A stretch of DNA of 64,000 nucleotides from Vicinamibacterales bacterium (GCA_965197935.1 CBDAOD010000002.1:1154849-1218848); one strand, 5' to 3'. Shown: positions 1,083 through 30,815, counted from the stretch's first letter. The notes: generated by a model not told the origin, from the letters alone. Numbers and translations are program-made.

Positions 1083-2149
1083 TTCTGTTTGTCGTCAGCA
1101 GTCTCATCAAAGGTTTGTGTGACGAGGTCCGAGCGGGTACCGGACACATCAAGCAGGTCTTTGTCCTCACCCACAACGTCTATTTTCACGGTTCCTCTCA
1201 CGAATGTATGCAAGGAGAGTAAGTCCTCTCCGCGTTTAAACTGTGTAGAATCAGCCACTTGCGAGAGTCAGCAATGACCCGGTATCTAAGATGTGGATGC
1301 GGGGGCCTGGACCGCCGGCTGCACTTGAGGGCGCGTGGTACCAGGCCGCCAGCTTTCGAGGCGGTGGAGGGAAGCTCCGGGCGCGCGATGGCCATCGGGG
1401 CGAGTCAGCCGCGAGTTTCACCTGGCTGCATGATCGTCACGGCGTAAACATCTTCGTATCAGCATCTTACGTCGGAACAGGCTGCCGCCGAGCAGGCCCC
1501 CCACCAAAAGCGGGGCCCGCGCAGGCGGCGGTCGATTCAGCTACGGAAGCCCCTGAATCCGGCTGGTTTCTGGCCTATTCCTCATCTTGAGGCCGACGCG
1601 TGATCGGCGAGATCATTCCAGAATCGTGCATACATTTGTGTGAGGAACCATTTTCACAAAGAGGTAACGTTCAATCCGAGGCGCGTGAATGGCGCGATGA
1701 ACGAAGAGACCTTTTGGGTCGTTCGGAAAGTCGGCGTGCAATCAAAGGTTGAAAGACACACTACGAATCCGATCAGGACTTCTTACGAGTTGCTGTGGGC
1801 CGAAGTCCGGAGGTCAGATCGTTCGATACTAACGATTCAGAACACCCTGCGGCGGTTTGTTGAGCACTACTTCAAGATCTTGGGTGGAGTCGATCCCGCC
1901 GAGATTTGGGGGATGTTTGAGGGCAAAGATAGGTTGATTTGCAAGTCGCTATTCTCCTGGGTTCACGATGGTTCGCATTATGCCCATGATGATTTATATC
2001 TGGCGATTGACGACGCGATGGTCGAGGCCTACCTGAAGGTGTCCAGGGCCGTCTTCGGAAGGTCAGGCCATCTCGCTCATTACGGAATGATGATGGGGAG
2101 TGCCCGTGCTGAAGAGCCAGCAACCTCGGTCCTGCATGAGCCAAGCTGA
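1083..2149 (+). pseudogene. C-terminal part of an RloC-like (AAA_13 ATPase + HEPN) anticodon nuclease, interrupted
   Basis: LFVVSSLIKGL...QVFVLTHNVYFH joins in frame to KEVTFNP...NTLRRFVEHYF...SWVHDGSH once 1190-1649 and one target copy are removed. Confidence 0.75.
1190..1649. mobile_element. 460-bp non-autonomous MITE with ISL3-like ends
   Basis: 23-bp terminal inverted repeats GGTTCCTC(T/A)CAC(G/A)AATGTATGCA (21/23 match). 8-bp target duplication ATTTTCAC at 1182-1189 and 1650-1657. No transposase. Confidence 0.9.
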
Positions 2150-2302
2150 ATCGTGAACGGCCGGACACATCGTGGCAGTAGACACACTCAAGGCTCCATT
2201 GGGCTCATGCGTCAGGGCACGGTCTGTTGAACGAGGCGCTGCATTAGTGTCACAGACTGCGGAGCCCGATCAGTAGAGCACATCCGCATGGCCGCCCGGT
2301 CA

Positions 2303-4015
2303 TCACGTTCCTGAATGTTCATTCCGCGCCCCGAGCTTCTCGAGCAGTCCAGTCCGCCGTGGCGGGCGCTGCTGACAGGCGACGCGCAAGGCCCCCTCGT
2401 CGGCCGCGAGCAAGATCCGTGATCGCGCCCGGGTCACGCCGGTGTAGAGCAGCTCTGGGCCGGCCAGTTCGTGCGGCTGGGGGGGGAGCACCAGTAGCAC
2501 CGATTCGAATTCGCTGCCTTGCGAGCGGTGGACGGTCATGGCCCAGGCGGTGTCGTGGCTGGGTAGGGCGGCCAGCGGGACGCTGCGCGGTTCGTGGAGG
2601 CCGGGGAACCAGGCCGTGATGCCGCGCCCATCCTCTCTGTTCAGCAGCACGCCGACGTCGCCGTTGAAGAGTCCCGTGTGGGGGTCGTTGCCGGTGACCA
2701 GCACGGGTCGGCCATGGGCCCATTCGCCGGCGGGTAGGCCCTCGCGGCGCAGTCTGGACTCGACGCGGGCGTTGACGCCTTCGACGCCGTACGGGCCACG
2801 CCGGAGGGCGCACAGGATACGAATGCGGGCCAGGGCGGCGAGGGCCTCGTCCGGAGTTGACGCTCGGACGACGGCCATGACCTGGGGCCAGACCTGTTCC
2901 AGGGCGTCGTTCACCTGTGCGGAGGAGTAATGGAACAGTTCCTCCCGATAGTCTTCGTTGGTCAAGGTCTGCACCGTGGTGTCGCCGTCGTAGTTGCGAA
3001 TGGCGATGGCGAGGCGGCTGATGCCGGGGTGCGACTCGAACCGGTAGTTGCGGTCCAGCTCGACGTGGCAGTCGGTCAGGGCGCCTTGTCCTCCGCCATT
3101 GGCTTCACCAGTGGCTGCGACGATCATCTCGGCCAGCACCCGTCCGGGTTGCACGCTCTCGAGCTGTCGGTGGTCGCCGAGCACGACGAGGCGGGTGCCG
3201 CGTCCGAGGGCGGAGAGCAGGCGGTCCCAGAGGACGAGGTCGAGCATGGAGGCTTCGTCGACGACCACCACGTCATAAGGCAGGGGGTTGGCGGCGTGGA
3301 ATCGGCAGCGGTCGGTGCGCGGATGCCAGCCCAGAAGGCGGTGCAGCGTTCGCGCCTGGAACGCGGCTCGCTCGAGCCGGGGACGAACACTGGCCAGCGG
3401 TCCGTCGATTTCACTGGCGGCCTGGGCAATGGCTTCACCGAGGCGGGCCGCAGCCTTGCCGGTGGGTGCGGCCAGTGCGACGCGGATGCCTAGTTCGCGG
3501 TTGGCGAGCAGGGCGAGCAGGCGCGCGGCTGTGGTGGTCTTGCCGGTTCCGGGACCGCCGGTCACCAGAGCGAGGGCTCGCCGGAGGCCCAGCTCTGCCG
3601 CGCGCCGTTGGGCCGACTGTGAATCGGGAAAGAGCTGCGCGAGATCGTCAGCGTCGCCAGGGCCAGGTGTGTTGGAACCCTCCTCCGGGCTAGCGGCGCC
3701 GTTGGGAGTGTAGCCGGCGGGAACCTGGACATGTTCACTGGCCAGTTCCCGCAACCTGGCGGCCACGCGAGTCTCGGCCTGGTCCAGTCGCCAGGACTGC
3801 AGCCGAGTGCCTCGCAAGACCAGTGGCGCGGGACTGCGGCCGTCGCTGCCCGTAGTGACGGCGGCGCTGCCGGCAAGAAGGCCGGCTTCTTCGTGGGTCA
3901 GCTCGAGCGACGTGTGGCCGGCGGCCCAAGAAGTGAAGAAGCGTTCCAGCACCGGGGCGGCTGCGTCGGGAAGGCCCCAGCGGCGCTTCAACATGTGAAT
4001 GGCTGCCAGGCTCAC
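2303..4015 (-). CDS. recD: Exodeoxyribonuclease V alpha subunit (SF1B helicase)
   Basis: GGPGTGKT, AAPTGKAA, TLHRLLG, VVVDEASM, GDHRQLESV, TVHRSQGSEF, LYTGVTRAR. 570 aa; GTGA overlap with recB. Confidence 0.95.
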   Translation of the reverse strand: MSLAAIHMLKRRWGLPDAAAPVLERFFTSWAAGHTSLELTHEEAGLLAGSAAVTTGSDGRSPAPLVLRGTRLQSWRLDQAETRVAARLRELASEHVQVPAGYTPNGAASPEEGSNTPGPGDADDLAQLFPDSQSAQRRAAELGLRRALALVTGGPGTGKTTTAARLLALLANRELGIRVALAAPTGKAAARLGEAIAQAASEIDGPLASVRPRLERAAFQARTLHRLLGWHPRTDRCRFHAANPLPYDVVVVDEASMLDLVLWDRLLSALGRGTRLVVLGDHRQLESVQPGRVLAEMIVAATGEANGGGQGALTDCHVELDRNYRFESHPGISRLAIAIRNYDGDTTVQTLTNEDYREELFHYSSAQVNDALEQVWPQVMAVVRASTPDEALAALARIRILCALRRGPYGVEGVNARVESRLRREGLPAGEWAHGRPVLVTGNDPHTGLFNGDVGVLLNREDGRGITAWFPGLHEPRSVPLAALPSHDTAWAMTVHRSQGSEFESVLLVLPPQPHELAGPELLYTGVTRARSRILLAADEGALRVACQQRPPRRTGLLEKLGARNEHSGT

Positions 4016-7000
4016 GCAGGGACCTCACTGACAGGGCTGCCAGGGCTGACAGCGCTCACGAACAGCCCGTCGAGGTCGTCCAGCAACGCCTCGGGCGGAG
4101 TGATCTCGAGGACACCGTGGCTGGCTTCGGGGAGGACGCCACGCAGAAACAGCAGGCTCCCGGAGACGGCCTGCGTCCCGGGGCCGTAGAGCCCCAGGTA
4201 GCGACGCAGGGCGACGAGGTACAGATGGACCTGCAGCACGTAGTGCTGCCCCGCCGCGCACCGCCACATTGCTTGCCGGCTGTAGTCAGCGTAACGGGGT
4301 CCCAGATAGTTGCTCTTCCAGTCGACGACGCCCCAGCGGCGATCGGCCCGCACCAGGCGGTCGATATACCCGGTCAGCATGCCGGACAGGGCCTGGCCCG
4401 GCAGACCCGCAAGGTCGAGAGCATAGTCGCGTTCGTCGTCGTTCCGGGCATGACGGGCGAAGATGTTCGACAGTGCCTGGCCGGTGATGCCGGCCCGACC
4501 GAGTGGCAGCAGGAACTCCCATTCAGACAGGCCCCTGTCGGCGGCGGCCGTCTCGAGGCTGGCGTCCAGGCTGTCGAGGCGGGTGGTCTTGAGATCGTCG
4601 AGCGTGTGCCGCACAGCCCCCACCGCATCTTCGGAATGGAGTCGGTGGCGCTGCAAGGCTCGGTCGACCAGTGCCGTGGAGTCTTCCTGGAAATCCCAGT
4701 GCTCCAGCAGCTCGTGCAGGCAGTTGCCGGCGTGGGTGCCGCGAGCGAAGGCCGCGAGCGGCACCTCGGTGGCGGGGGCGTCCTCCGGATCCGTCATGGC
4801 TTCGGCCACCGCATCACGGCGTTCCCGTTCTTCGTGTCGGCCATGGGCCAGCCGCGAGAAGCTGGTGAGGTTCCAGGCCTGCAGATCGAGCGCGGGGGCG
4901 GCGCGCGCGTGCATGGGTGCTTCGGCATGGCCGCCGCCTGTCCAGGTCGTCTCGCTGGGCGAGGGCGGGACAGACACGGTGATCACGTCTGGCTGCGCCT
5001 CTTGAAGGCGGCGCAGCGTGTCGCCGTGTTCGCATCCTGATGCACTCTTCTTTTGAGCGGCGGTGGCCGCGTACCAGTCTTCCAGGCTGTCTGCCTGGTC
5101 GTCGGTCCGCAGCAGCCAATCGAGCGAGGTCGGGGGCAGGGTGGCCCTCGCGGTGTACCCCAGGGGGCCGGCGAGCAGCGTCACGCGGCGGCGGGCGCGG
5201 GTCAGGGCCACGTAGGCCAGACGCAGGTCTTCGAGCAGGCGCTCGGCGGTCACGGCGCGGTGCTCTGCCTGGTTGTCTCGCTGTGTACCGTCGGCCAGCA
5301 TCCAGCCGTCGTCGCCGCGCACCAGCAGACGCTGGTTGGCACCGGGGTCCGGCATCACCGACCAGAGGTAGGGGCAAAACACGAAGTCGAATTCTAGCCC
5401 TTTCGCCCGGTGCACGGTGACGACCTGCACGGCGTCGCCGTCTTCATCCAGGCGGCGCAGGCGTTCGTCCGACGCGCTGTCCTCCGACATCCGCTCGCCC
5501 TCGAACCATTGCAGCAGCTTTTCGGGGGTTCGCTGCCCCTCGGCTTCCCGCGCCTGCAGCAGGTCTTCGAGATGTCGCAAATCGGTGAGGTGCCGCTCGC
5601 CGGAGGGGGCACGGGCCAGGCGAAGCGTGGCCTCGGAATGAGCTTCCAGTCCGGCCATGAGCGCGGCAATGCCCCGACGACGCCACAGCTCGCTCCACTC
5701 CGAGAAACTGGCCAGCCGCTGTTCCGTATCCGCACTGGTGATGTCGGCCAGCATGGCCGAGTCGTAGCCAAACAGGCGGGTCGCCATGGCGGCCCGTCGC
5801 CACCCGGGATGGGTGGGCGAGAGCACCGCCTTCAGAATGGACGCGAGGTCGGACGCCGTCTCGCTCCGCATGACGTCGCCGTCGTCGCGGACCACGGTCG
5901 GTACGCCCCGCGTGCGCAACGCCTGGTAGACCAGCTGCGCTTCGAGATTGGTACGGGTCAGCACGGCGACGTGCGACGGAGTGACCGTTTCCGCGTCGGC
6001 GCCCATCGTCCGGCCCAGCAGGTCCACGATAGCCGCGGCGGTGCAGGCTGCCGCGCGCTCTCGACGTGGCTGGGCACGAACCCACTGCTCGCTGTCTGCT
6101 TCGGGCACCACCCACGTCACCAGTCGCCCGTGCCCGTCCGCGGGCATGGGCAGGTCTGCATCCTGGCGGGCAGCCGTCGCCTCTGGATGCACCAGGGCGG
6201 GGTTGCCGAAGGCGCGGGGCCGTCCGAACAAGGTGTTCAGGGCCACCACCAGGCCATGGGCCGATCGATAGGTGGTGGCCAGGTCGCTCACGCGGGCCTC
6301 GTCCGTTGGCCGGGCAGACAGATACGCGTCGAGGTCTCCACCGCGAAAGCTGTAAATGGCCTGCTTGGGATCACCCACCAGGATGAGCCGTCCGGGACCC
6401 GTCCCGCGGTCGAAGATGGCCCTGAAGATTTCCAGCTGCTGCTGGTCGGTGTCCTGGCTCTCGTCGATCAGGCCCACCTTCCACTTAGCCGACAGCCGTT
6501 GGGTGAGAGCGGCGCGGTTCGGCCCCGAGCACAGGGCTCGGTGTAGCTTCTCGATCAAGCCATCGAAGGTGACGGCGTTGTCGCGTCGCAGGCTTCGCTC
6601 GAATCGTTGCCCCGCCGCCTGGTCCAGGTGCGCGAGCCAGGCCCAGCCGGTGGCGCCGACAGTGGCTTGCACCGCTTCGGCTATGGCCACCATCGCCAAT
6701 GCGCCCGCCTCATCCGAAGCGGCCTTGCCCACCGCGCCTTTCCGGCTAAACCAGGAACCCGCGCCCGCCAGCCGCCCTGCGATATGAAAGATCTCCACCG
6801 GGGGCTGCTGCGGGTCCAGGGTCTCGAGCAGCGTGTGCCAGGCGTCGAGCTGGGCCACCGAATCGGTGCCTGGCTTCTGTGTCGAGCTGTTCAGCTTCAC
6901 CGTGTCCCGGCCGCCAATCTCCTGCAGTCGACGAATGTCGGCGCGGGCATCCTTCAAGGCTTCGAGCGCCTGCGCTACCCTGTTTCGCGCCTCCCGAAGA

Positions 7001-7632
7001 GAGGCCGGCTTCGGTTCCATGCAGGTCGACGGCCGCTGCGTCAACGAGCGCCACGCCTTGAGATCGCCCTCGACCGACCACTTGCCAAGAGCCGCCACGG
7101 CGGCCAGCAACGAATCGGCGGCGAGATCGGTGCGCCACGTATCTTTGACGGCATCCGACTTCAGCTCGCTGGCGTCCGGCAGCACCTCGAATCCGGCGGG
7201 CATGCCGCACAGAAAACTCTCGGACGCCAGCACCTGCTTGCAGAAGGAATGGATGGTCGACACCGCGAGCTGGTCGCTCTCATCCAGCGCCAGGCGCAGA
7301 CTCAACATGGCCGCGTCCCGTTCCGGGGCAGCGAGTGCGCCGAGGCGGTCCAGCAGAACACGAATGCCCTCCTCATCGTCCCCAGGCCGTGTGTCGGCGT
7401 CGGCATGGGCCACCAGGGTCGCCAGATGGCGGCGGGTCCGCTCGCCCAGCTCGCGGGCCGCGTCCTCGGTAAAGGTGACCAGCAGCACCTCGCCGATGTC
7501 GCTGACGACCCCGTCCACCAGCAGGCGCGGCAGCAGGTGGGAGATCGTCCAGGTCTTCCCGGTGCCCGCGCTGGCTTCGATGACCGACAGGCCCTTGGGC
7601 ACCTCGGTCACGTGCAGGTGGAAGTTAGCCAC
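4012..7632 (-). CDS. recB: Exodeoxyribonuclease V beta subunit (helicase + nuclease)
   Basis: Likely start GTG 7632 (VANFHL). EASAGTGKT, LIDESQDT, VGDPKQAIYSFRG, TVHRAKGLEF, YVALTRAR. The C-terminal nuclease motifs GYID...DWKSN...QVHLY are intact. Confidence 0.95.
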   Translation of the reverse strand: MANFHLHVTEVPKGLSVIEASAGTGKTWTISHLLPRLLVDGVVSDIGEVLLVTFTEDAARELGERTRRHLATLVAHADADTRPGDDEEGIRVLLDRLGALAAPERDAAMLSLRLALDESDQLAVSTIHSFCKQVLASESFLCGMPAGFEVLPDASELKSDAVKDTWRTDLAADSLLAAVAALGKWSVEGDLKAWRSLTQRPSTCMEPKPASLREARNRVAQALEALKDARADIRRLQEIGGRDTVKLNSSTQKPGTDSVAQLDAWHTLLETLDPQQPPVEIFHIAGRLAGAGSWFSRKGAVGKAASDEAGALAMVAIAEAVQATVGATGWAWLAHLDQAAGQRFERSLRRDNAVTFDGLIEKLHRALCSGPNRAALTQRLSAKWKVGLIDESQDTDQQQLEIFRAIFDRGTGPGRLILVGDPKQAIYSFRGGDLDAYLSARPTDEARVSDLATTYRSAHGLVVALNTLFGRPRAFGNPALVHPEATAARQDADLPMPADGHGRLVTWVVPEADSEQWVRAQPRRERAAACTAAAIVDLLGRTMGADAETVTPSHVAVLTRTNLEAQLVYQALRTRGVPTVVRDDGDVMRSETASDLASILKAVLSPTHPGWRRAAMATRLFGYDSAMLADITSADTEQRLASFSEWSELWRRRGIAALMAGLEAHSEATLRLARAPSGERHLTDLRHLEDLLQAREAEGQRTPEKLLQWFEGERMSEDSASDERLRRLDEDGDAVQVVTVHRAKGLEFDFVFCPYLWSVMPDPGANQRLLVRGDDGWMLADGTQRDNQAEHRAVTAERLLEDLRLAYVALTRARRRVTLLAGPLGYTARATLPPTSLDWLLRTDDQADSLEDWYAATAAQKKSASGCEHGDTLRRLQEAQPDVITVSVPPSPSETTWTGGGHAEAPMHARAAPALDLQAWNLTSFSRLAHGRHEERERRDAVAEAMTDPEDAPATEVPLAAFARGTHAGNCLHELLEHWDFQEDSTALVDRALQRHRLHSEDAVGAVRHTLDDLKTTRLDSLDASLETAAADRGLSEWEFLLPLGRAGITGQALSNIFARHARNDDERDYALDLAGLPGQALSGMLTGYIDRLVRADRRWGVVDWKSNYLGPRYADYSRQAMWRCAAGQHYVLQVHLYLVALRRYLGLYGPGTQAVSGSLLFLRGVLPEASHGVLEITPPEALLDDLDGLFVSAVSPGSPVSEVPA

Positions 7633-10600
7633 TCGCCGGCCCCGCTTTCGCCGTGGGCGCGGTGTTCGCGAACCAGTCTTCCACCGGGACGAAGACCTCG
7701 GTGGCGAGGCGGCGCCACTCGTCGAAGTTGCCCTCGGCGAAGGGGTCCAGATCGCGCCACGCCAGTTGGGCCGAGGCGCTATCGCCCTCACCGGGTGGAC
7801 CCTTGGGTTGTTGTTCCCATGCCTTCAGGGCCCTGTCGGTTTCATCGACGCCGCGCCGGCCCGCGTCCAAGATCGCAAAGCTGGTCTTTGGCCCGAACGG
7901 TAAGGGGCGCATCCGCGCCTGCCGGCAAAGCTGCAGCAGGCTGTCGAGCGCGGCTCGTGCCTGCCGCTGGGCCATGGGCGGCATGCGGTCGACTCTGGCA
8001 CGCTCCCCATCCTTGGAGACCACGAGGGTGTCGCCGCGGATGCCGCAGGCGGCGGCAAAGGTCGCGCGAACCCAGGCATCCAGACGATGATGGGGCCGTC
8101 CCTTCAGCTCGGTGGGCATGACCAGCACCTGCAGGCTGCCCTCGGCATTGACGGTGATGTTGCCGGCGACCTGCGGGCTCCCTTCCCGGTACACCAGCCG
8201 CTGGGGCTGCAGGCGGCCACCCGCCTGCCGCACGGCGAGTCGGGCCAGGGACACGGCCTCCTGCACACTCTGTCTGCCCATAGCGGTGCCGAGGTTCCCA
8301 TAGGGCATCAGGCGGTCGGCCGCCAGGCGCTCTTCCAGGAACGTGGTCCGTCCTTCCAGCACGGCGCCGATGACCTCGGTCTGAATCTGCCACCGGTTCA
8401 GGCCCGTTGGGGCAGCCACCGGTTCCCTGTCCATGGCGAACGGATCGTCCCCGGCCTGGGGCAGTACGACCCCCAGGGAACCCAGCCAGGCCGACCAGGG
8501 ATCTTTCAGCATCCGGATCATCTCGTGCAGCTCGAGATCGCCCGACTGGACCTCTTCGGGCGGCGCGAAGACGCCGGCCTGGAACGGCGCGGCCACGTCC
8601 TGTCGCTCCTGGCAAGCGCGGGCAATCTCGAGGTGGGCGGTGTCGAACGAGGCTCGCGGGCCGGTGAAGCAGGTGGGGTTGAACGGCTGCAACGGGTGGT
8701 CTTCGATCAGGGCCCGGTAGACCTCTTCCCGGGTGTCGGCACTGCCGGACACGGTCGCGGCGGCCACCCGCAAGAATTCATCGACGCAGGCCGAGAGCGG
8801 CTCTTCCTTGTTGCTGCGGATGTTGCGGGCCGTGGCTGTCAAGATGATCCGGTCGCCGGCCGCTAGAAGGGCGTCGAGAAAGAGCTGCCGGTCTTCGCGC
8901 ACCGGGTCTCGGTCGCCGGGGCGCGGCGCCGCCGCCAGCAGGTCCCAGGCGGGCGCCGTGGCCCTGCGTGGAAAGGCGGCATCCTGCAGGCCCATCACCG
9001 CGAGCACCCGACAGGGGATGGCGCGCATTGGCTTGAACCCACCCATGGCCATGGCCCCGCCCACCCTCGACACGGCACGAATCTCATCCTGGACGGCCTT
9101 GTCGAGCCAGTCGACCACAGCGGCCGCGTCCATCGGCAGGGCGCACGCATGTTCGGTCTCGGCGGCACGCAACTGGTCGATGAGGTCCACGGCCGCCGTC
9201 GAGTCGAACCTTCCGTCCTCTGTAGCAAGGATCTGGTCGAGCGCCTGGTTGAGACGGCTGGCCCACCGGCCCGGGCTGGCCTCGAGTTGCCAGTCTTGGA
9301 GCAGGCTCACGAGGCCGTCCAGCCAGTCGAGTGACGCGCTCATCGACGCGGGGTTCGCCCCCAGGTCACCTGAAACCGGCAGGGCCGGGCGGTGCTGAGC
9401 GTCTGATGCGGCTTGCGCATCACCAAGCCACAATCCGGCCAGCAATCGGTCCAGGCCAGCACGCCACGTGCCCGTATCCTGGTTGCCGGCGTCCATCGCC
9501 TGGCGATGGGCCGCGTTGAGCCCCCAGGTAATGCCGGAGGCACGCAGGCGATCGGCGAGCATCTCCGGGTCGGTGCCGCGCGATTCGACGCAGGCGGCAA
9601 CGGCGGGTAGTTCCAGCAGGGCCAGGCCTTCGCTCAGCGGCGCGCGGCCGGCAGCCAGGCGCAGCACCGTCTGCATGCCTCGCACCAGCGGGTCGCTGCG
9701 ATCGAGACGACGCTCCGAGAGGCGCAATGGCAACGAGGGGTCGCCTTCCCGCAAGATCGCCTCGGCCACCGGACCGTAGGTGTCCAGGTCGGGGGCCAGA
9801 ATCAAGACCTCACTCGCGGTCAGACCGGGTAGGCTGCCAAACGCGTCCAGCAGTTCATCGCGCAGCACTTCCACCTCGCGCCGCGCGCCGTGGCAGCGAT
9901 GCACACGCACCGAGCGGTCAGACTCGATCGACGTGACGCCGTCCACCGCTTCCGCGTTACCCGGCTGCCGCGCCGCGCGGATATCAGCCTGGAGGCGGGC
10001 CAGCAACGTGTCGGAGCTGGACTCGGGCAGCGCGATGACGTCGTACTCCTGACCTTCGGTGACGAGTGCCTCTTCGAAGCTGCGAAAGCTGTCGACGGCT
10101 TGCTTTCCCAGGTGCGACAGCAGGGGATGCCCTTCCCAGGCGGGGTCCACTTCCTTTCCCGCTCGCATCTGCGCGCGTCCGGCTCGCATGTCGCCAAGAT
10201 ATTCGGTGGATGGCAGCAAGGCGCGCAGGCAGACACGGGTTCTGGTAGCCAGGGCACGTAGCAGGGGCAAGATAGTGGGGGGCAAGGGCCCGGTGGCGAG
10301 CACTTCGAGCGAGGCCGGCAGCTCGCCATCGCCCTGTTGGATACGCGCGACCAGCTCCTGCAGGCGGACGGCTGGATTGTGATGGTCCGCCAGACTCTCC
10401 GACAAGCGCCGCCATAGCTCCCGTTGCCAGGCCTCGTCCCCTTGGGCCGGCTCGGGCAAGCCATCCCAGGCTTCCCCTCGGTCCCACGCGGCGATCATCG
10501 ACGGTCTGAAATACAGATACTGGTCGAAGCGGTCGGCCACCTCGGCGGCCAGCGCCTGCCGCGCCCGGGCATCCATGCACGCCGACTCCAGGCGCGGGGT

Positions 10601-10918
10601 GTGGCCTTCCTCGACCATGGCCGCCAGGAGCGGCACCAGTCGCCAGGCCAGGCCCTGCGGCCGCCAAGAGGGATGCACCGGGTCCAGACCGACCAGCCGG
10701 GCCATGCGTTCGATGAAGGAGCCGGGCAGGAGAAACTCCACCCCCATGGCGACCCCGTGACGGCGGGCCAGCTCTGCCTTGGTGCGGTCCACCAGCGGCA
10801 GCGATGGCATCAGCACCGGTACCACGACACCGGCGGGACTGCTTGGCCTGCCCAGCGAGTCCACCAAGTCCGTGAGCAGCACTGTCGCGTCAGACGCGTA
10901 CTTCAGCTCGAGTGCCAT
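7625..10918 (-). CDS. recC: Exodeoxyribonuclease V gamma subunit
   Basis: 1097 aa. FDQYLYFRP, CHGARREVEVLRDELL, GGFKPMRAIPCRVLAVMGL and DREDRQLFLDALLAA-type RecC segments. Lies upstream of recB and recD. Confidence 0.92.
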   Translation of the reverse strand: MALELKYASDATVLLTDLVDSLGRPSSPAGVVVPVLMPSLPLVDRTKAELARRHGVAMGVEFLLPGSFIERMARLVGLDPVHPSWRPQGLAWRLVPLLAAMVEEGHTPRLESACMDARARQALAAEVADRFDQYLYFRPSMIAAWDRGEAWDGLPEPAQGDEAWQRELWRRLSESLADHHNPAVRLQELVARIQQGDGELPASLEVLATGPLPPTILPLLRALATRTRVCLRALLPSTEYLGDMRAGRAQMRAGKEVDPAWEGHPLLSHLGKQAVDSFRSFEEALVTEGQEYDVIALPESSSDTLLARLQADIRAARQPGNAEAVDGVTSIESDRSVRVHRCHGARREVEVLRDELLDAFGSLPGLTASEVLILAPDLDTYGPVAEAILREGDPSLPLRLSERRLDRSDPLVRGMQTVLRLAAGRAPLSEGLALLELPAVAACVESRGTDPEMLADRLRASGITWGLNAAHRQAMDAGNQDTGTWRAGLDRLLAGLWLGDAQAASDAQHRPALPVSGDLGANPASMSASLDWLDGLVSLLQDWQLEASPGRWASRLNQALDQILATEDGRFDSTAAVDLIDQLRAAETEHACALPMDAAAVVDWLDKAVQDEIRAVSRVGGAMAMGGFKPMRAIPCRVLAVMGLQDAAFPRRATAPAWDLLAAAPRPGDRDPVREDRQLFLDALLAAGDRIILTATARNIRSNKEEPLSACVDEFLRVAAATVSGSADTREEVYRALIEDHPLQPFNPTCFTGPRASFDTAHLEIARACQERQDVAAPFQAGVFAPPEEVQSGDLELHEMIRMLKDPWSAWLGSLGVVLPQAGDDPFAMDREPVAAPTGLNRWQIQTEVIGAVLEGRTTFLEERLAADRLMPYGNLGTAMGRQSVQEAVSLARLAVRQAGGRLQPQRLVYREGSPQVAGNITVNAEGSLQVLVMPTELKGRPHHRLDAWVRATFAAACGIRGDTLVVSKDGERARVDRMPPMAQRQARAALDSLLQLCRQARMRPLPFGPKTSFAILDAGRRGVDETDRALKAWEQQPKGPPGEGDSASAQLAWRDLDPFAEGNFDEWRRLATEVFVPVEDWFANTAPTAKAGPASG

Positions 10919-13158
10919 TACGGATTGGCTCCTTGGCGGGAGGCGAGGATCTCCTTCGCCGCTTCACGTGCGCCCGGCTCGTCGAAGTGGCGGGACGCAT
11001 AGTCCACCGGACGAAGCTCTGGTGAGAGCGCCCAATCGTACTTCTCCTCGATCTGGTTCGCCGCCAGCGTGGCGAGTGCGGGCCCGCCGGGCACCTCGCC
11101 GCGGACGATTCGAGCCAGCGCCGCCACGACCCGTTCGGGCTCCACTTCGCGTACGCCGATCGCAATCCCCTCGATCCAGGCGGAAAGCTTCAGTGCATTC
11201 AGTTGCAGGCACAGGGTGTGTAGCACGCGGTCCCCGCGCCAGGGGAACAGCAGAGCGGAGCCCTCCCTCTCGACCATGCGATGCTGAGATAGATCCCAGC
11301 GATCGAAGGTATCTCGACCCTCGGTGAGGAGCTCCTTGGCCGTGGCGTCGAGGTAGACCGGCACCGTCCGGGAGGCGTAAATCCGGTGCATCTCGGCCCG
11401 CACGCGATCATGAACGTCGCAGCCTCCGCCCTCGAACCGCGGCGCCCGTCCGCCATGAGCCTGCGTCAGCTCGATCACGCGAGCTGTCTCGTCGATGGAA
11501 CGAACCTGCCACCGCCGGCCAGCGAAGATCAGATGGCTTCCGGGCGCGAGCGGTTGGGTGATCGGCATCGTGCCGAGCGTCTTGCTGCCTGCGACCAGAC
11601 GGTACTCCTCTGGGGTGACGAACGCGACGTAGAACGAGTAGTGGTCGACGAGTGTCTCGCCTCGGTCGCCCAGGGTCAGCGTTCCATCGCTCGTCTGGGT
11701 CAGGATGTGTTGCTCGCCGAGGCTGTGGAGGAGCCGCCCGAAGAGCTCGCTATCGACGCCACGGAAGGGCCCCGACCTGCACAGCGCACTGTAGAGGTCC
11801 TTTGCCAGGACGCCCCCGTGCTGGGCGATGACGGACAGGACCTGCTGCACGAGGGTCGACAGGTGTAGCTGCCGGGGTGCCGGTGGCTCGCACCACCGAG
11901 CCAGCAGCAGTTGCACCATGGCAATCGACTGGACGAGCTGCGCACGGAGCTCGTCGTGCAGCGTCGAGGTCTTGCCCAGCTCTTCCTCGACGACGAAGCC
12001 CCGGAGCACGGCCGGCTCGTCGGCCCGGCGCCCCGAGCGCCCAAGGCGCTGCCGCAGCGCCGTGACCGATGGGGGAGATCCCACCTGGGCGATGCTGGCG
12101 ACGCTTCCGATGTCAATGCCCAGCTCAAGAGTGCTGGTGCACACGACAGATGTCGGCTTCGAGGTGTTCTTGACCCGGGCTTCCGCTTCTTCCCGGATCT
12201 CGCGGGAGAGATTCCCGTGATGCGCGAAGAACTCGTTGGGAACGTGTGCCCGCTCGGACAAGTCGCGCAAGTGGTCGGTCAGTTCCTCGACGCGGCTGCG
12301 GCTGTTCGCAAAGACGAGATTATCCTGGCCGCGCAAGGCCTCGTACAGGTCACCAACCAGCCGCGTGGCGTCTCCCTTGTCGTCGGGGGCCTGGGGCGAG
12401 CCACCGGGCGCCGGTGGACGCGACCGGTACCCGCGCAGTTGCAGTCGCAGCTCGCGGCCGTCGCCCGTTCCCTCGATGAGCACGACCGCATCTCCCGCGC
12501 CGGGTCGCAAGGCTTCCGCGGCCAGTCGCATGTCGCCGAGCGTGGCCGACAGGGCCACGCGCGGGACCCGTCTGCGGATGGCGAGCTCCATGCGGTTCAG
12601 CAGGGACTGGAGCTGGCGACCTCGCTCGCTCCCTATGAAGCTATGAAGCTCGTCCACGACGACGTGGGTCAGGCCGGAGAAGAGGCTCGGGATCTTGCTT
12701 CCGCGCAGGACGAAGAAGGCCTCGAGCGACTCCGGCGTGATCAGCAAGACGCCCTGCTTCTCTTTCAGCAGCTTCTGTTTCCGGCTCTGGGGAACGTCGC
12801 CGTGCCAGGGGGTGAGCGGCAGGCCCACCCGCTCGAAGAGCGGGGTCAGGCGGGCGGCCTGGTCGTTGATCAGGGCCTTGAGCGGGCTCACGCACAGGCA
12901 GGCGATTCCATCAACCTCGCTCTTTGCGAGCTTCGAGGCTATCGGGAGGAAGGCCGCCTCGGTCTTTCCGCCGGCGGTGGGTGCAGAGATGATGACGTCG
13001 GCATCCCCGTCCAGGATCTGCTGTGCCGCATGCTCCTGAACCAGCCTGAGCGCCGTCCACCCCTGTTCCCAGATCCACCGCTGCACGCCGGTGTGGAAGC
13101 GCTCGAACGCGAAGGAAGGCGTCGGGTCAGAGCTGGAACGAGGCGAGTCCATCGTCAT
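10918..13158 (-). CDS. Lhr-like DEAD/DEAH SF2 helicase (Shango SngC-like)
   Basis: APTAGGKTEAAF, DELH, SATLG, TSTLELGID, QRLGRSGRR. The stop TAA shares its last base with the recC ATG. Confidence 0.88.
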   Translation of the reverse strand: MTMDSPRSSSDPTPSFAFERFHTGVQRWIWEQGWTALRLVQEHAAQQILDGDADVIISAPTAGGKTEAAFLPIASKLAKSEVDGIACLCVSPLKALINDQAARLTPLFERVGLPLTPWHGDVPQSRKQKLLKEKQGVLLITPESLEAFFVLRGSKIPSLFSGLTHVVVDELHSFIGSERGRQLQSLLNRMELAIRRRVPRVALSATLGDMRLAAEALRPGAGDAVVLIEGTGDGRELRLQLRGYRSRPPAPGGSPQAPDDKGDATRLVGDLYEALRGQDNLVFANSRSRVEELTDHLRDLSERAHVPNEFFAHHGNLSREIREEAEARVKNTSKPTSVVCTSTLELGIDIGSVASIAQVGSPPSVTALRQRLGRSGRRADEPAVLRGFVVEEELGKTSTLHDELRAQLVQSIAMVQLLLARWCEPPAPRQLHLSTLVQQVLSVIAQHGGVLAKDLYSALCRSGPFRGVDSELFGRLLHSLGEQHILTQTSDGTLTLGDRGETLVDHYSFYVAFVTPEEYRLVAGSKTLGTMPITQPLAPGSHLIFAGRRWQVRSIDETARVIELTQAHGGRAPRFEGGGCDVHDRVRAEMHRIYASRTVPVYLDATAKELLTEGRDTFDRWDLSQHRMVEREGSALLFPWRGDRVLHTLCLQLNALKLSAWIEGIAIGVREVEPERVVAALARIVRGEVPGGPALATLAANQIEEKYDWALSPELRPVDYASRHFDEPGAREAAKEILASRQGANP

Positions 13159-14440
13159 CTGCGTCGGACCCCTCAACCGGTGCGAGGTCGGGATTGCCCT
13201 CGTCGGGGATCTCGACCGTTCCCACGAGCTGCTGCCAGGACGTCTCTGGATTTTGCTCCAACACGGCGAGCAGGTTCACAAACTCCTTGATCGTGTTGCG
13301 GGGCGTTCTGAAGTAGGCCTCTCCGACGCGCTGGGAGCAGTGCTGCATGAAGGCGTGGAGCGCTTCGTCAGGGACGAGATCGCCGGCGGAATGGCTCCCC
13401 GCGTAGACGTGTCGGATCTTCCCGAGCAAGACGTAGAGGTCTTCGGGCGAGAGGTTGGCCAGTCGCACGATGGGGCCGGTCATGTCGACGAGCCCGTCGT
13501 GGGCGAACGAGTTCTTCGCGAGACGCGATTGCAGCGCCTCGTAGCTGTAGAGGCCCTTCCGCGTGTCGAGCAGGAACTCCGGTGTTCCGCCCAGCACGAA
13601 GCCAAGTCCCACAGCCGCACCCTGCAGGCTGTCGTTCAAGATCCGGAGAATCTGCTCGTAGTTTGCGCTGCGTGCCCGTCCGCTGGGCAGCTTGTAGAGA
13701 TTGACCATCTCATCCAGACAGACTAGGAAGCCGCTGTAGCCCGCCAGGCGCACGAATCGCGCCATCAGCTTGAGGTGGTCATAGATGTTCGAGTCGTCGA
13801 CGATCGTGCGCACGCCGAGGGCCTTGCGAGCGTCGGTCTTCGTCGCGAATTCTCCGCGCAGCCACCGGACGGCACTCGCCTTGACCCCGTCGTCTCCCGT
13901 CTCGTGCCCCCGCCAGTAGGCGGCGACCACCTCTGCGAAGTCGTAGCCCCCGACCATCTCGGTCAGGGCCGCGAGCCGTTCGCGGATGATTGCCTCCGCG
14001 GCGACGCCGTCATCGCGAGCCCGGGAACGTGCGCTCGACACGAATCGCTCGACCACGTTCTGGAGCGCTCCCCCGTCGGGCTTTGATCGAGTGGCCAGGC
14101 TGCGCATCAGCTCCCGGTAGAGCGAGCGCGCCTGCCCTCCACTGGCATGCAGCCGGCGGTCCGGGTTGAGATCGGCGTGCGCGGAGACGAGCTTTTTCTC
14201 CAGCGCGATCGAGCGGACCAGGTTCAAAAAGAAGGTTTTCCCAGAGCCGTAGTCGCCGATTACGAGGCGGAAGCTCGCGCCGCCGTCGCCGATGCGATCG
14301 ATGTCACAGATGAGGGCCTGCACCTCGTCCGCGCGCCCCACCTGGATGTGCGCTTGTCCGACTCGCGGCGTCACGCCGGCTCGGAGGGACTGGAGGATGG
14401 CGTCTCGAACCCTGGGGCGAATCTTGCGATCGGACGTCAT
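13127..14440 (-). CDS. DUF2791/BrxD-like P-loop ATPase (Shango SngB-like)
   Basis: Begins LQSLRAGVTPRVG; Walker A GDYGSGKT; Walker B CLDEMVN; YEALQSRL. 437 aa. Confidence 0.88.
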   Translation of the reverse strand: MTSDRKIRPRVRDAILQSLRAGVTPRVGQAHIQVGRADEVQALICDIDRIGDGGASFRLVIGDYGSGKTFFLNLVRSIALEKKLVSAHADLNPDRRLHASGGQARSLYRELMRSLATRSKPDGGALQNVVERFVSSARSRARDDGVAAEAIIRERLAALTEMVGGYDFAEVVAAYWRGHETGDDGVKASAVRWLRGEFATKTDARKALGVRTIVDDSNIYDHLKLMARFVRLAGYSGFLVCLDEMVNLYKLPSGRARSANYEQILRILNDSLQGAAVGLGFVLGGTPEFLLDTRKGLYSYEALQSRLAKNSFAHDGLVDMTGPIVRLANLSPEDLYVLLGKIRHVYAGSHSAGDLVPDEALHAFMQHCSQRVGEAYFRTPRNTIKEFVNLLAVLEQNPETSWQQLVGTVEIPDEGNPDLAPVEGSDADDDGLASFQL

Positions 14441-16746
14441 GCCTGCAGCTCCCGTAACACACCGAGGTTCACCTCCACCGGGTCCTCTCCCTCCAGCAGA
14501 GGGCTGTCGACTCCCTCGAACGCCGCCTCGTTGAGCGTCTCGTAGGCTCCGTCGGCAAGCAGGTCCAGGCGCTCGGCGATCTTCTCAAACTCCTCGCCGC
14601 TCAGCTCGGCACGGCCGTCGAGAGCCCGCAGGAGGGCCGTGTGTCTAGCGTCGAGGCCCGCGACCGTGTTCGGTGCGACGCGATCCACTTCCGGATCGTC
14701 CTGTTCTGAGGGCTCCTCCGTGAAAACCTCGGCGAGCACTCGGGAAATAGCCTCGGTCTCGGCGAGCGTGCGCTCCACCCGGTCCATGTCGAGATCAATC
14801 CGACCCGTCTCCGGGACCGATGGCTGCGACGGAGGCGCGGGGATCGCGCGTCCCGCTTTGGTAGCCTCAGGCGGACGCACCGTGATCGGGCGTTCCGCAG
14901 GGCGCCAGGCATCGCCGGCCTGGAGCGAGTGGACGTCCCCGTACGCCTGCTTCGGGTCGAAACCCAGCAGACGGTAGATCTTCTCAATCGTCCGGACCTC
15001 CTCTCGATCGATGACGCCGTCGACGGCGGCCGTCCCGATCGCGAATTCCGCAAGGAGCCGGCGCCGGCCGGCATCGACGCCAGCCAGCCGGCTCTTGATT
15101 CCGGCGACGCTCGGCTTCTCGGCGATCAGCCACTTCGAATGAGCGCGCAGGCGCCGGGCTTCCTCATCATCGAGGTGCATCGATTGCTCGAGGTGTTTTT
15201 CGAGATGGCGCTCTTCGCTCTCGCCTACATCTCCGTCACTCGCTGCCACGAGTGCGGCGAGGTGTAGCACCAAGGTGGCGGCTCGGTACGCTGGCGTGGC
15301 GGCGGCGAGTCGCCCTGGGCCGAGTGGGAACAGGATGACCTTCTGATCAGCCCGGACGCCTCCACCCCCGAAGCGGGGGTCTGGCTCGACGCCGTAGCCG
15401 AGCGACTCCAGGGCTCGAGAAAACCCTCCAAGCTCTCCCTTGCCCATGCGGTCTGCGCGCGCGCAGTCCCAGTGCGTCATGAGGTCGGACCCGGCGGCGG
15501 CCGCGCCATCTCCATCACCCAGGCTCGCAGTGATCCAGCTTCGGAGGCGTTCGGAGGCTGGGGTCTTACGGGATTCGGCGAGCTCCGGAGGCAGCAGCGC
15601 CCGTCCTTCCAAGGTGCGTGCCTTCTCGGGGCACCGGCCGACCAGCCGGCTGTAGCCCTCGAGCTCGGACATAGCATTCTCGGCGATCTCCCGCAGTAAC
15701 CGCACTGGCCTCGTGAGGGCGCCGACGTCCGGAACGTTGTCGAAGGGAACGTCCACCGGGCCCCCGAACGACGCGCTCGAAGGCTGGTGAGAGACCTTCA
15801 GCCGACGCTTGTTCGGCTTCAGAGTCATCCCGCTTCCGAATTTCTCCTGGTAGCGCCGAACGAAGAGCTGCCGGAACTCGTCCGGGCAACGCCGCGCGGG
15901 TGTTCGGAGACGGGTTTCAGGATGGCCCACTACCCAGGCAAGTGCCCACTCCGCTGGGATCGGTTTGCCCGCCGCGACGAGCTGACCGAGTGCCAGACGA
16001 ACGTCCAGGGGAAGCTCGCCGCTTCGTTGGCCGACGGTCGGCGGGCGCTCCCAGGCACTGCCTGTCGACCACAGCGCGTGGGCTACCTGTACCAGCGAGG
16101 AGCTGTAGCGGTCGAACGAGCGGTTCCCGCCGTAGATTGAGCGCAGGCGGTCGACTTCGGCAATGAGCGCAGGGGCCTCACCTCGACGCTCGGGAAGGTA
16201 CTGAAGTTCGAAGAGAAGCCGGCGCTCGAGGCCATAGAAAAAGAGGAACACATACCCGATGTAGGCGTTCACCTCTGACCGTCCGCCTGCAAGCCAATCA
16301 AGATAGGCGACGCGAGACTCGGCTGAGATCTGGCGATACGAGGGCCAGTAGTCCATGCCTTCGCCGGAATAGTCGCCTCGGCCCCGCCCGACCTTCAGGG
16401 CGGGGATGATCAGAGCGGGCTCACAGTCCCGCCACTCTCCGATCGGCAGGAGTGAAGGGCCTACGTAGACCATTCCGCCAGAGATTACGCGATTCCGAAC
16501 TTTCGCTGTGGAATCCGGCGAGACCCACAGGCGGTCGCCGGCTCGCGCGAGCTTGGCCGGTTCGACGCGCTGGCGAGTCGTGGATGGGAACTGAAGCCCC
16601 CCGTCTGACCCGATGTCGATCGAGATCGTCACCCGCGGCGAGCGCGAGAGAACCCGATCGCGCGAAGGCGGTTTCGATTGCGACCGGGCCCGGAGCAGCC
16701 CGTAGATCAACAGGCCGATCAGAACGAATCCAACGAAGGTGCTCAT
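14437..16746 (-). CDS. TerB_N/TerB/TerB_C domain protein with N-terminal TM helix (Shango SngA-like)
   Basis: Hydrophobic N-terminus; YWPSY...AYLDWLAGGR...GYVFLFFYGLERRL; TerB-like AASDGDV...AAVDGVIDREE. ATGA overlap with the next gene. Confidence 0.88.
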   Translation of the reverse strand: MSTFVGFVLIGLLIYGLLRARSQSKPPSRDRVLSRSPRVTISIDIGSDGGLQFPSTTRQRVEPAKLARAGDRLWVSPDSTAKVRNRVISGGMVYVGPSLLPIGEWRDCEPALIIPALKVGRGRGDYSGEGMDYWPSYRQISAESRVAYLDWLAGGRSEVNAYIGYVFLFFYGLERRLLFELQYLPERRGEAPALIAEVDRLRSIYGGNRSFDRYSSSLVQVAHALWSTGSAWERPPTVGQRSGELPLDVRLALGQLVAAGKPIPAEWALAWVVGHPETRLRTPARRCPDEFRQLFVRRYQEKFGSGMTLKPNKRRLKVSHQPSSASFGGPVDVPFDNVPDVGALTRPVRLLREIAENAMSELEGYSRLVGRCPEKARTLEGRALLPPELAESRKTPASERLRSWITASLGDGDGAAAAGSDLMTHWDCARADRMGKGELGGFSRALESLGYGVEPDPRFGGGGVRADQKVILFPLGPGRLAAATPAYRAATLVLHLAALVAASDGDVGESEERHLEKHLEQSMHLDDEEARRLRAHSKWLIAEKPSVAGIKSRLAGVDAGRRRLLAEFAIGTAAVDGVIDREEVRTIEKIYRLLGFDPKQAYGDVHSLQAGDAWRPAERPITVRPPEATKAGRAIPAPPSQPSVPETGRIDLDMDRVERTLAETEAISRVLAEVFTEEPSEQDDPEVDRVAPNTVAGLDARHTALLRALDGRAELSGEEFEKIAERLDLLADGAYETLNEAAFEGVDSPLLEGEDPVEVNLGVLRELQA

Positions 16747-16811
16747 AGGTGCCGTTCATTGTGCAACAAGCTGTCGCTTCCCGGATCCCTTTTCAGTGGG
16801 AGGAACCATAG

Positions 16812-17015
16812 TATCAAGCAGAGCTGCGGTCGGTGATTGACGCCAAGATCGCCGGCGAGGAGTTCGTCGTCCACGAGGCCGAGGCACCCGCCAAAGTGGT
16901 CGATCTGATGGCGGCGCTCCGCAAGAGCCTCGACAGCGTCAGCGAGTCGAAGAAGAAGCCGGCGAAGTCGTCCACCACCCGGAAGATAACCAAGGCCAAG
17001 CGCAGACGCGCCTGA
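16812..17015 (+). pseudogene. C-terminal remnant of Ku (NHEJ end-binding protein)
   Basis: YQAELRSVIDAKIAGEE...KVVDLMAALRKSL plus a basic tail. The N-terminal core is missing. Confidence 0.75.
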
Positions 17016-17049
17016 CCCCGGTTTCCCCACGTGCCTGTAGTAGAAAGGC

Positions 17050-17446
17050 CTTCAGGCCCGTCCCTGGGGTCCACGCGGGGCCACCGCGCCGGGATCAGCC
17101 ACCGGCTCACCCGGCCACAGACCACACAGCGGGTCGGCTCGGGCGCGGGCGCCGGTGGCACCTCAAGGGCGTGGAGTCTGGCGTACCGGAGGACGGCAGG
17201 GGAAGAGTGATCCCTCACGCGGCACCGGGTGCGATAGGTGCGTTGATGGTCTCGGTGATCGAGACGCCCTTCCGGACTGCGCTGATGGCGGGCCTTGGCG
17301 GCCTGCACCGAGCGACGGCGGGCCAGGAGACGGCAGCGTGCCGAGCAGTAGGCGTGGCCGCGGACGTTCTTGCGCTTGTGCCACTGACACCGTTGCACCA
17401 GGGCGCGGTGGCGGAACGCTTTCCGGCCGGCCGCTCGAAGTCCCTC
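17050..17446 (-). pseudogene. Mosaic: IS256-like transposase fragment fused in frame to a Cys/Arg-rich hypothetical protein fragment
   Basis: 17363-17446 encodes RALVQRCQWHKRKNV (IS256-type QRCxxHKxxN motif), followed by RGHAYCSARCR...HQRSPEGRLDHRDHQR. Confidence 0.5.
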
Positions 17447-17447
17447 C

Positions 17448-22340: not shown

Positions 22341-23027
22341 CGGCTCCTGGTCGGGGCGCGGCCTGCCAGGACCGTGGTGTGTCCCGGCTGCGAAGCCGAC
22401 TGCGTCATGCTGGTGCAGACGATCCCCGCCGGGCCGCGCGCGGCGGCACGCTCATCGTCTGTGACAAACGGAGTGACATCAACCGGGTGGCGCTCACGAC
22501 GGCACACGTGGACCAATGGAAATGTGATGCCGAGGCCCTCGCCCGGTCTGTCGTCGAGCAGCTGGGCCTGCGCCGGAGCCGGCACCGGATCGACGATTCA
22601 GGGACGCGGCCCCTCGGGCTCGCCGCTGGCGACACGCGGCACCAGATGCTGGGCCTGCGCACGCGCGGGGACGTGACGCTGGTCGTCGCGGACACGGCGG
22701 GTGGCCCTGGCGGACCTGATCGACTTCGAGCGCGGCGCCTACATGCTGGACACCGCCGCCATTCGCCACTTCGTCGATGCGGCGACGACCGCCGACCCGC
22801 ACTACACGCCGAGCACGACGCGGCGCGAGGCCCACACGCGCGACACGCAGGCACGGTACGCGCGCTGGCAAAAGGCCTGCCGCGCGCTGAAGCAGCGGCG
22901 CCCGCACATGTCCGACGTGTTGTACGCTCGGCAGATTGCCGCGCAGGCGGTCGCGGCCGGCTGCCACGCGAGCACCATCCGCAAACACACGACGCGACGG
23001 CCGGGGGCCATCACGCGGTGCGGCTGA
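22340..23027 (+). pseudogene. Frameshifted remnant of a genomic-island hypothetical protein
   Basis: CPGCEADC, IVCDKRSDINRV and YTPSTTRREAHTRDTQARYARWQKA...IRKH are spread across three frames. Confidence 0.45.
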
Positions 23028-30797: not shown

Positions 30798-30815
30798 GGG
30801 ACGAAGGGAGAGACC

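Follow-up and report, generated by a model that had tools for sequence, protein, structure and literature searches.

RecBCD (exonuclease V) is a helicase-nuclease that works from DNA ends, repairing double-strand breaks and degrading linear DNA. Shango is a phage-defence system of three genes, sngA, sngB and sngC, described by Millman et al. (2022 preprint, 10.1101/2022.05.11.491447) and Johnson et al. (2023, PMC10250203); phage protection has been shown for the Escherichia coli and Pseudomonas aeruginosa systems only, and the mechanism is still given as unknown in published papers. The described systems are stand-alone three-gene cassettes on islands or plasmids, whereas in the stretch of DNA considered here, 64,000 nucleotides (nt) from a Vicinamibacterales bacterium (GCA_965197935.1 CBDAOD010000002.1:1154849-1218848; the whole stretch is referred to as the window), sngC abuts recC without a spacer, and a recC-recB-recD operon is preceded by a defence system rather than by an upstream region of its own. 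Literature searches found no published description of an sngABC-recCBD unit and no mechanistic link between Shango and RecBCD, in keeping with a preliminary description of this DNA, made from the sequence alone, which had called the six-gene unit undescribed. The novelty is the arrangement, both trios being already-known systems. The favoured explanation, given a probability of roughly 0.45, is that the locus would consist of two separable machines in one co-directional, tightly packed array, between which a loose functional partnership is plausible.

The six-gene array and its two halves

The array and its upstream region comprise the following features, the genes being taken from a table of open reading frames (ORFs), with lengths in amino acids (aa) and with compared loci designated by L numbers here and below.

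14437-16746, minus strand: sngA, 769 aa
13127-14440, minus strand: sngB, 437 aa
10918-13158, minus strand: sngC, 746 aa from ATG 13158
7625-10918, minus strand: recC, 1097 aa
4012-7632, minus strand: recB, 1206 aa from GTG 7632
2303-4015, minus strand: recD, 570 aa, GTG start
16747-17363, no strand assigned: upstream non-coding or leader region of sngA, presumed Shango promoter region (megablast of L001-L006 against the window; gene tables of L001-L005)

All six genes lie on the minus strand with zero intergenic space, and the overlaps of 4, about 30, 1, 8 and 4 nt given in the preliminary description were confirmed by the ORF table and a reading of the junctions. The 4-nt overlap of sngA and sngB lies at 14437-14440, with sngB starting at ATG; sngB and sngC overlap by 32 nt with ATG 13158, or by 26 nt if the next ATG is used, the longest sngC ORF beginning earlier, at TTG 13176. 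The sngC/recC junction reads TAATG, in which the TAA stop of sngC and the ATG of recC have one base in common at 10918, and AAGGAG, a Shine-Dalgarno-like hexamer for recC, is found in the last codons of sngC, 10 nt before the recC ATG. The recC/recB junction, GTGGCTAA, is an 8-nt overlap at 7625-7632; the longest recB ORF begins at 7791, and the gene is called as 1206 aa on metagenome contigs. The recB/recD junction is a 4-nt overlap at 4012-4015, and recD starts with GTG. A consensus scan of positions 1500-18000 found no promoter or terminator signals inside the block above shuffle expectation, and nothing at the sngC/recC junction, so that a single transcript is compatible with the sequence, although the scan used the sigma-70 consensus, which may not apply to Acidobacteriota, and cannot separate one transcript from two. 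One transcript probably spans the array, and translation of recC is probably coupled to that of sngC.

By every sequence criterion the upstream trio is canonical Shango, and the Shango-type assignment first proposed for it held when the three proteins were compared with the PADLOC models. SngA carries TerB_N (2.5e-50), TerB (1.1e-13) and TerB_C (8.8e-21) domains in Pfam, and matches its PADLOC model at 1.1e-85 over profile positions 28-524 of 528. Its N-terminal segment, MSTFVGFVLIGLLIYGLL, is hydrophobic, and the protein is presumed to be the sensor of Shango, associated with the membrane. SngB is a BrxD-like (PF10923) ATPase (Pfam BrxC_BrxD, 2.2e-154; PADLOC SngB, 1.4e-181, full length) with a Walker A motif, GDYGSGKT. 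SngC is a DEAH-box helicase of the Lhr/BrxHI-like type (Pfam DEAD and Helicase_C; PADLOC 7.4e-270, profile positions 4-718 of 720) in which the motifs TAGGKT (conserved in the alignment consensus), DELH, SAT and QRLGRSGR are intact. The genes are contiguous, co-directional and in the order A-B-C, as in 177 of 193 unique Shango loci surveyed. The likeness to described Shango thus extends to the same three genes, their order and domains, with all three PADLOC models covered nearly full length, and gene sizes and overlaps match those of the Klebsiella and Salmonella plasmid copies and the E. coli copies. Pfam and PADLOC gave no evident toxic effector domain in SngABC, and Shango encodes no nuclease of its own. 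The next closest described relative is the accessory pair BrxD and BrxHI of BREX (bacteriophage exclusion), the second-best PADLOC families for SngB (BrxD, 4.8e-48) and SngC (BrxHI, 4.9e-121), which likewise pairs an ATPase with an Lhr-like helicase; the window proteins nevertheless match the Shango models best, and in place of the PglX methyltransferase, PglZ, BrxA/B/C and BrxL of BREX there is a TerB protein.

The downstream trio is RecC-RecB-RecD by architecture and motifs, as had also been proposed, with Pfam and NCBIfam matches over essentially full length. RecC contains Exonuc_V_gamma (3e-49) and RecC_C (8.7e-27) and matches TIGR01450 at 3.6e-154 over positions 34-1061 of 1063 (515 bits, under the cut-off of 583). 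RecB (Pfam UvrD-helicase, UvrD_C and PDDEXK_1) combines a helicase of superfamily (SF) 1A, with GTGKT, and a C-terminal PD-(D/E)XK nuclease (GYID...VVDWKS) whose catalytic D...D.K is present; it matches TIGR00609 at 1.6e-173 (580 bits, under the cut-off of 696). RecD is an SF1B helicase with GGPGTGKT, DEASM and TVHRSQG (Pfam AAA_19/AAA_30; TIGR01447 3.5e-123, 412 bits, over the cut-off of 310). The trio therefore resembles exonuclease V in its full domain set, its intact helicase and nuclease motifs, the recC-recB-recD order, its overlapping stops and starts, and the repair genes (SRAP, an SbcCD-like pair and uvrA) found near recCBD of this type, and differs from it in that RecC and RecB fall below the NCBIfam equivalog cut-offs. 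Across both halves the Walker, DExH, SF1 and PD-(D/E)XK motifs are all present, so the earlier statement that the catalytic motifs are intact stands.

Shango beside RecBCD and AddAB in other lineages

The arrangement is found beyond the one genome, as diverged copies in the Vicinamibacteria-like clade to which the window belongs (L102, L103/L104 and L106, discussed below) and in a second sngABC-recCBD array, in the Archangium metagenome-assembled genome (MAG) L183, whose RecC, RecB and RecD are 27%, 26% and 41% identical to those of the window. A sister contig, L257, carries recCBD alone, with a RecC 85% identical to that of L183; at the nucleotide level the two contigs become homologous precisely from the sngC stop codon onward, the native recC leader of 64-70 nt being left in place. 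The Archangium array is independent of the Vicinamibacteria-like one. Other bacteria pair Shango with AddAB-like proteins: an AddB-like and AddA-like pair lies upstream of Shango on the same strand in the cyanobacteria L031, L030 and L039 (with one gene in between in L030 and L039), downstream on the same strand in the Nitrosomonas MAG L072, beside it in divergent orientation in the Bryobacterales MAG L241, and upstream in L109. The AddA partners are only 23-28% identical to each other, the L072-L241 pair excepted, and in PADLOC these AddA- and AddB-like proteins showed only generic UvrD-helicase similarity to GajB, with no match to a known defence family.

The frequency of such adjacency was estimated from three scans of species-representative genomes and 11 look-up loci (L102-L112), which together gave 193 unique Shango loci, 182 of them at species level; this is a sample, roughly 400 further Shango loci lying beyond it. 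The great majority of the 193 are stand-alone. A RecB/AddA-class complex lies zero or one gene away in 6 of 182 species-level loci (L183, L072, L241, L030, L031 and L039), representing four lineages, to which L109 adds one from outside that set. Each of seven control genes (UvrA, Def, PBP1, AsnB, SbcC-like, SRAP and CoxE) gave 0-1 matches within 10 kb and none adjacent, and direct adjacency of Shango to the RecB/AddA class has a Poisson P of 4e-5 to 2e-3. When 1314 neighbour ORFs were clustered, with a crude ORF caller that miscalls antisense ORFs in high-GC DNA and was used for this clustering only and not for gene boundaries, AddA-like (6 loci) and RecB (5 loci) were among the top five neighbour families in what was an unbiased comparison. 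The remaining three were an ion channel whose gene lies directly downstream of sngC and an RNase_H_2-SF1 helicase of about 1160 aa, with 8 loci each, and an unknown protein of about 640-710 aa, with 6.

One plausible explanation for these associations is that the upstream machine is an ordinary Shango in which SngA would detect a cue of infection from its place in the membrane, the SngB and SngC proteins would act on the invading DNA, exposing, unwinding or breaking it, and an end-dependent helicase-nuclease of the host, RecBCD here and AddAB elsewhere, would then degrade that DNA, a step carried out in trans in most bacteria and in cis in this array. Linkage would probably be favoured, and not required, because both machines would act in one pathway on phage DNA. 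It is tentatively proposed, with somewhat less than even confidence, that Shango works through host RecBCD or AddAB, as executioner or as the thing guarded, and that the rare fused arrays are Rosetta-stone traces of this relationship, which would ordinarily play out in trans; the arrays meant would be sngABC-recCBD in the Vicinamibacteria-like clade and Archangium, and addBA beside sngABC in the cyanobacteria, Nitrosomonas, Bryobacterales and L109. The preliminary description had pointed out that Shango as described has no dedicated nuclease. The broader idea, that it may make use of an end-dependent helicase-nuclease from outside, gains some support from the recurrent RecBCD/AddAB adjacency; the proposal in that description that the RecBCD is a dedicated one is not borne out, as discussed in the next section.

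Several observations weigh against a partnership, and it is clear from the loci compared that the linkage is rare and labile. Under a lax model, which counts any RecB-class operon within 10 kb at 2-3 such operons per genome, P rises to 0.14-0.5 and is not significant. Clustering of the neighbours of the 193 loci gave no RecB-class neighbour outside the window clade and L183, no RecC was found within 10 kb of Shango in the first 80 species-level loci, and the nearest SngC relatives of every linked locus are without the linkage. The partner may be downstream, upstream or divergent, and the sngC-recC junction itself varies, being a 1-nt overlap, a 16-nt overlap, a 24-nt spacer or a 64-nt spacer. 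Between L072 and L241, which belong to different phyla, AddA is 48% identical, which suggests that some partners may themselves be mobile island genes. In a tree of SngB and SngC the Shango-only loci L105, L107 and L108, which sit in insertion sequence (IS)-rich or plasmid-like contexts, nest inside the six-gene clade, so that the Shango of this clade can also leave recCBD; no recC remnants were found downstream of Shango in these three loci or in the Shango-only L109, which may have lost recCBD or never have had it. Shango is very frequent on plasmids of enterobacteria, being a bare three-gene cassette on 685 PLSDB plasmid records (449 from Klebsiella and 144 from Salmonella; 540 conjugative), and among 5426 complete E. 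coli genomes 475 (about 9%) have it, the one E. coli example inspected lying in a tRNA-Arg island. By these counts Shango is normally a self-sufficient three-gene cassette.

Much of this would be expected if the two trios were accidental neighbours, Shango being an island passenger that abuts a resident recCBD, with the tight junction produced by deletion and nothing but a transcript shared. This explanation is quite possible, though not preferred. It accords with the stand-alone plasmid and E. coli systems, with the occurrence of each module alone in close relatives, with the unconserved junction and with the repeated loss of Shango described below. It has more difficulty with the two independent events, in different phyla, that placed Shango directly upstream of recC and co-directional with it, with three or four further lineages in which addAB is directly adjacent, and with the figures above, since about 0.2-0.7 events are expected by chance and the control genes gave 0-1 matches. 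Nor are the recC-upstream neighbours in about 50 other RecC loci mostly defence genes: PADLOC applied to 127 such neighbours returned WYL regulators (6) and a few single matches, none of them SngC-like, and the idea that recC is a general defence hotspot was rejected, the Vicinamibacteria locus being nonetheless clearly variable. A look at 80 JGI (Joint Genome Institute) metagenome loci with Archangium-type RecC found none with Shango beside it, which is uninformative because Shango itself is rare.

The same adjacency statistics would arise if Shango were a guard that monitors RecBCD or AddAB and fires on a phage inhibitor of the Gam-, gp5.9- or Abc2-like kind, linkage then matching guard to guardee. 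The partners do not form one co-travelling clade; each is the diverged RecBCD or AddAB of its own lineage, a pattern that a locally fitted guard would show, and published accounts describe defences that respond to RecBCD inhibition, namely retron Ec48, OLD and Gabija. A guard is nonetheless unlikely here: no known guard is linked to recBCD, the Shango copies of broad-host-range plasmids would need to recognise many different RecBCDs, and SngABC has no evident toxic effector domain.

The survey also brought to light features of Shango and recC neighbourhoods that are recorded here in their own right. Eight diverse Shango loci (L027, at 12274-13122, L028, L037, L046, L135, L143, L178 and L180) have, at a median distance of 37 nt downstream of sngC, a gene for a 282-aa Ion_trans/Ion_trans_2 channel, which might be the fourth gene of a Shango subtype or its membrane effector. 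The protein of about 1160 aa (RNase_H_2 exonuclease-like plus SF1 helicase AAA_11/AAA_12, with a PADLOC MkoA-like C-terminus) is found beside Shango in 8-9 loci (L112:2840-6316, L108:17123-20626, L051, L082, L087, L107, L170, L224 and L144), and so is a further neighbour of the helicase-nuclease kind. In L110:4105-8722 tandem sngA paralogues of 740 and 774 aa are followed by sngB-sngC, and in L109 (12259-12966) and L112 (12247-12966) a gene of 235-239 aa overlaps the sngC stop, the copies being 67% identical and a weak BRCT match the sole family signal. SbcCD-like genes (Metallophos nuclease, AAA_27/AAA_23 ATPases) a few kb downstream of Shango in L023:13068-16606, L024:13647-17156 and L043:14871-18098 echo the SbcCD-like pair found downstream of recD in the window clade. 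Among metagenomic RecC loci, a conserved gene of about 345 aa is divergent from recC and about 1 kb upstream of it in L291, L295, L299, L303, L323 and L332; if these are the same proteins as the six WYL-domain matches, it is a possible damage-response regulator of recCBD.

History of the recC locus

An identical RecC protein is found on 8 metagenome contigs, five of which carry all six genes at 99% identity or more. These near-identical contigs match the window only as far as about 17316-17363 upstream of sngA, beyond which each flank differs, marking the border of a hypervariable island, and they are broken by differing IS elements on both sides of the array. The Shango half has begun to erode even at this level: in L004 sngA is without its first 148 codons, and L006 has lost sngA and sngB, together with the 5' end of sngC, to an IS, recCBD being untouched in both. 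Proteins 85-90% identical to SngC led to further six-gene arrays on Vicinamibacteria-like contigs. In L102 sngA is truncated and a TAA-to-CAA change extends sngC 16 nt into recC, with recCBD intact; L103 and L104 have an intact array with the TAATG junction of the window; and in L106 a 24-nt spacer separates sngC from recC. The Sng and Rec proteins are respectively 90-93% and 86-91% identical to those of the window in L102, 79-90% and 81-86% in L103, and 76-90% and 79-85% in L106, and comparison of these sequences shows that both array halves diverged in parallel after inheritance. The closest recCBD operons in species-representative genomes (75-89% amino-acid identity) belong mostly to Vicinamibacterales or Acidobacteria MAGs, which assigns the window to a Vicinamibacteria-like acidobacterium, and none of 15 such genomes has an intact Shango next to recC.

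The gene order in L106 is MoxR-like ATPase, CoxE, CoxG, BamB-like beta-propeller, sngABC and recCBD, and L007, L008 and L015, which have no Shango, show these cox and bamB-like genes ahead of recC as well, so that the original setting was likely coxE-coxG-bamB-like / sngABC / recCBD, as in L106. Directly upstream of recC, L015 has a frameshifted SngC remnant (residues 635-745, 65% identical) and L007 a remnant of the last 29 SngC codons (residues 718-746, 79% identical), while L008 has kept no sngC remnant. Shango-bearing and Shango-less loci fall in one clade of a RecC and RecB tree, with L106, L008 and L015 in one subclade and L103, L102, L007 and the window in its sister, a topology that implies one gain of Shango directly upstream of recC and at least three independent losses with recCBD kept. 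On this evidence the simplest history is that the ancestor of a small Vicinamibacteria-like clade acquired Shango once, directly upstream of recC, and that Shango then decayed or was lost repeatedly (L004, L006, L102, L007 and L015) with recCBD intact throughout.

Comparison of loci with and without Shango also bears on whether recCBD is resident or was acquired for defence. In sister species (L007, L008 and L015) and in more distant relatives recCBD stands at this locus with no Shango beside it; an SRAP peptidase and an SbcC/SbcD-like pair lie downstream of it in several species; and uvrA lies upstream of recC in the same orientation, 7.8 kb away in L013 and 49 kb away in the window. Shango-linked RecBCD is indistinguishable in length and domains from its unlinked sisters. 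Because the locus is the same with and without Shango, and because of the conserved downstream repair genes and the synteny of uvrA, the evidence says that recCBD here would be the lineage's resident operon, older than Shango in the clade, and not a Shango-specific paralogue.

These findings tell against the proposal, made in the preliminary description, that the RecBCD is dedicated to Shango as the effector of an obligate system. An obligate variant of Shango with six genes, its effector nuclease being a dedicated paralogue of RecBCD, would agree with the five tight junctions and the lack of terminators found inside the block, and with the co-divergence of both halves. It would also be consistent with a recCBD that looks horizontally mobile and, in some relatives, dispensable. 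In the complete-chromosome MAGs L009 and L018 (about 10001-18550), labelled Longimicrobiales and Trueperaceae, recCBD is 74-80% identical to that of the window (79-80% where mobility is argued), an identity equal to that of many Vicinamibacterales, which suggests either cross-phylum operon transfer or mislabelled MAGs. In L011 (13278-13709) recB is truncated after residue 144 and recD is missing, and in L017 (10001-13108) recC residues 1-857 are joined to recD residues 397-566, so the operon may not be essential in the group; a recC frameshift in L018 (12673-12706) may be a long-read sequencing error. An AddA-like gene is also near, 8.5 kb from recCBD, in L014. Judged from these operons, recCBD of this type may be neither essential nor strictly vertically inherited. 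An obligate unit is even so very improbable, since recCBD stands intact in place after deletion of Shango in L007, L008 and L015 and, at strain level, in L006, and stands alone in L257; recCBD predates Shango in the clade; linked and unlinked RecBCDs do not differ in length or domains; Shango-bearing and Shango-less loci form one clade in the RecB/RecC phylogeny; and the Shango of the window clade also occurs alone (L105, L107 and L108).

The region between uvrA and recC also speaks for accidental neighbourhood. The interval ranges from 7.8 to 49 kb, and that of the window holds an extra 40 kb or so, strain-variable, with conjugation-type and defence genes. These include TraG/TrwB-like, ArdC, type I restriction-modification and McrBC-like genes, and the flank upstream of sngA is IS-rich and different in every near-identical contig. 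The features of the island, and the gene remnant on the far side of recD, are as follows.

1640-2149, plus strand: AAA_13-type gene remnant, 169-aa ORF, matching the C-terminal 150 residues of PADLOC PDC-S06 only (1.9e-60)
17215-19095: HKD+Snf2 fragment (PADLOC C3a139)
21481-22464 and 27762-29807: TraG/TrwB-like coupling proteins
23327-23403: tRNA-Arg
23652-23727: tRNA-Thr
30667-32109: ArdC
34578-37151: type I methylase
37247-38515: type I specificity (S) subunit
39728-42469: EVE-AAA5 McrB-like gene
42466-43830: McrC
44308-48678, plus strand: 1456-aa orphan ORF, adjoining the McrBC-like pair

No type I R subunit was seen in the window island (17215-48678), and for the 1456-aa orphan neither Pfam nor PADLOC gave a match at E <= 1e-3 or 1e-5. 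By this gene content Shango lies at the recC-proximal edge of a mobile, defence-rich island. The counterpart of the AAA_13-type remnant in L106 is a pair of adjoining AAA_13 ORFs downstream of recD. In outgroups a tyrosine integrase is found just upstream of recC in L010 and L016, with the same integrase cluster nearby in L021, and a nucleoside 2-deoxyribosyltransferase-family gene precedes recC (L010:8021-9840, L016:3049-5235, L021:7526-9061, L014:9001-9840 and L020:8658-9842, a coordinate set that includes the integrase region). The integrases are another sign that the site upstream of recC may receive mobile DNA, as accidental neighbourhood would have it. Although flanks differ and IS elements abound, the six-gene cassette was not taken to be a composite transposon, because the downstream synteny (AAA_13 remnant, SRAP and SbcC-like genes) and the synteny of uvrA point to one chromosomal site scrambled by IS elements.

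Published parallels and implications

The closest published parallel is defence island #27 of Stenotrophomonas maltophilia, in which a RecBCD operon is conserved beside JetABC without JetD (PMC11680222). There too a nuclease-less defence module stands beside a resident RecBCD operon, but the module is Wadjet I, the phylum is another one, and the locus is not described as a single overlapping array. More broadly, published work treats RecBCD as an 'immunity hub' on which other defences rely or over which they watch (PMC9836394). The interplay of an accessory defence with host end-processing that is seen for retron Ec48, P2 OLD and Gabija is of the sort that the recurrent adjacency suggests here; the likeness is by analogy only, as none of the three is reported to be genetically fused to recBCD.

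The neighbourhood link to RecBCD and AddAB is a testable lead to the mechanism of Shango, rather than a new six-gene defence system. Should the link not hold, what is left is a clear worked example of a mobile defence cassette welded to a core repair operon and then decaying. If it is true, Shango would belong with the defences centred on the RecBCD 'hub', and that connection would here be seen hard-wired in cis for the first time.

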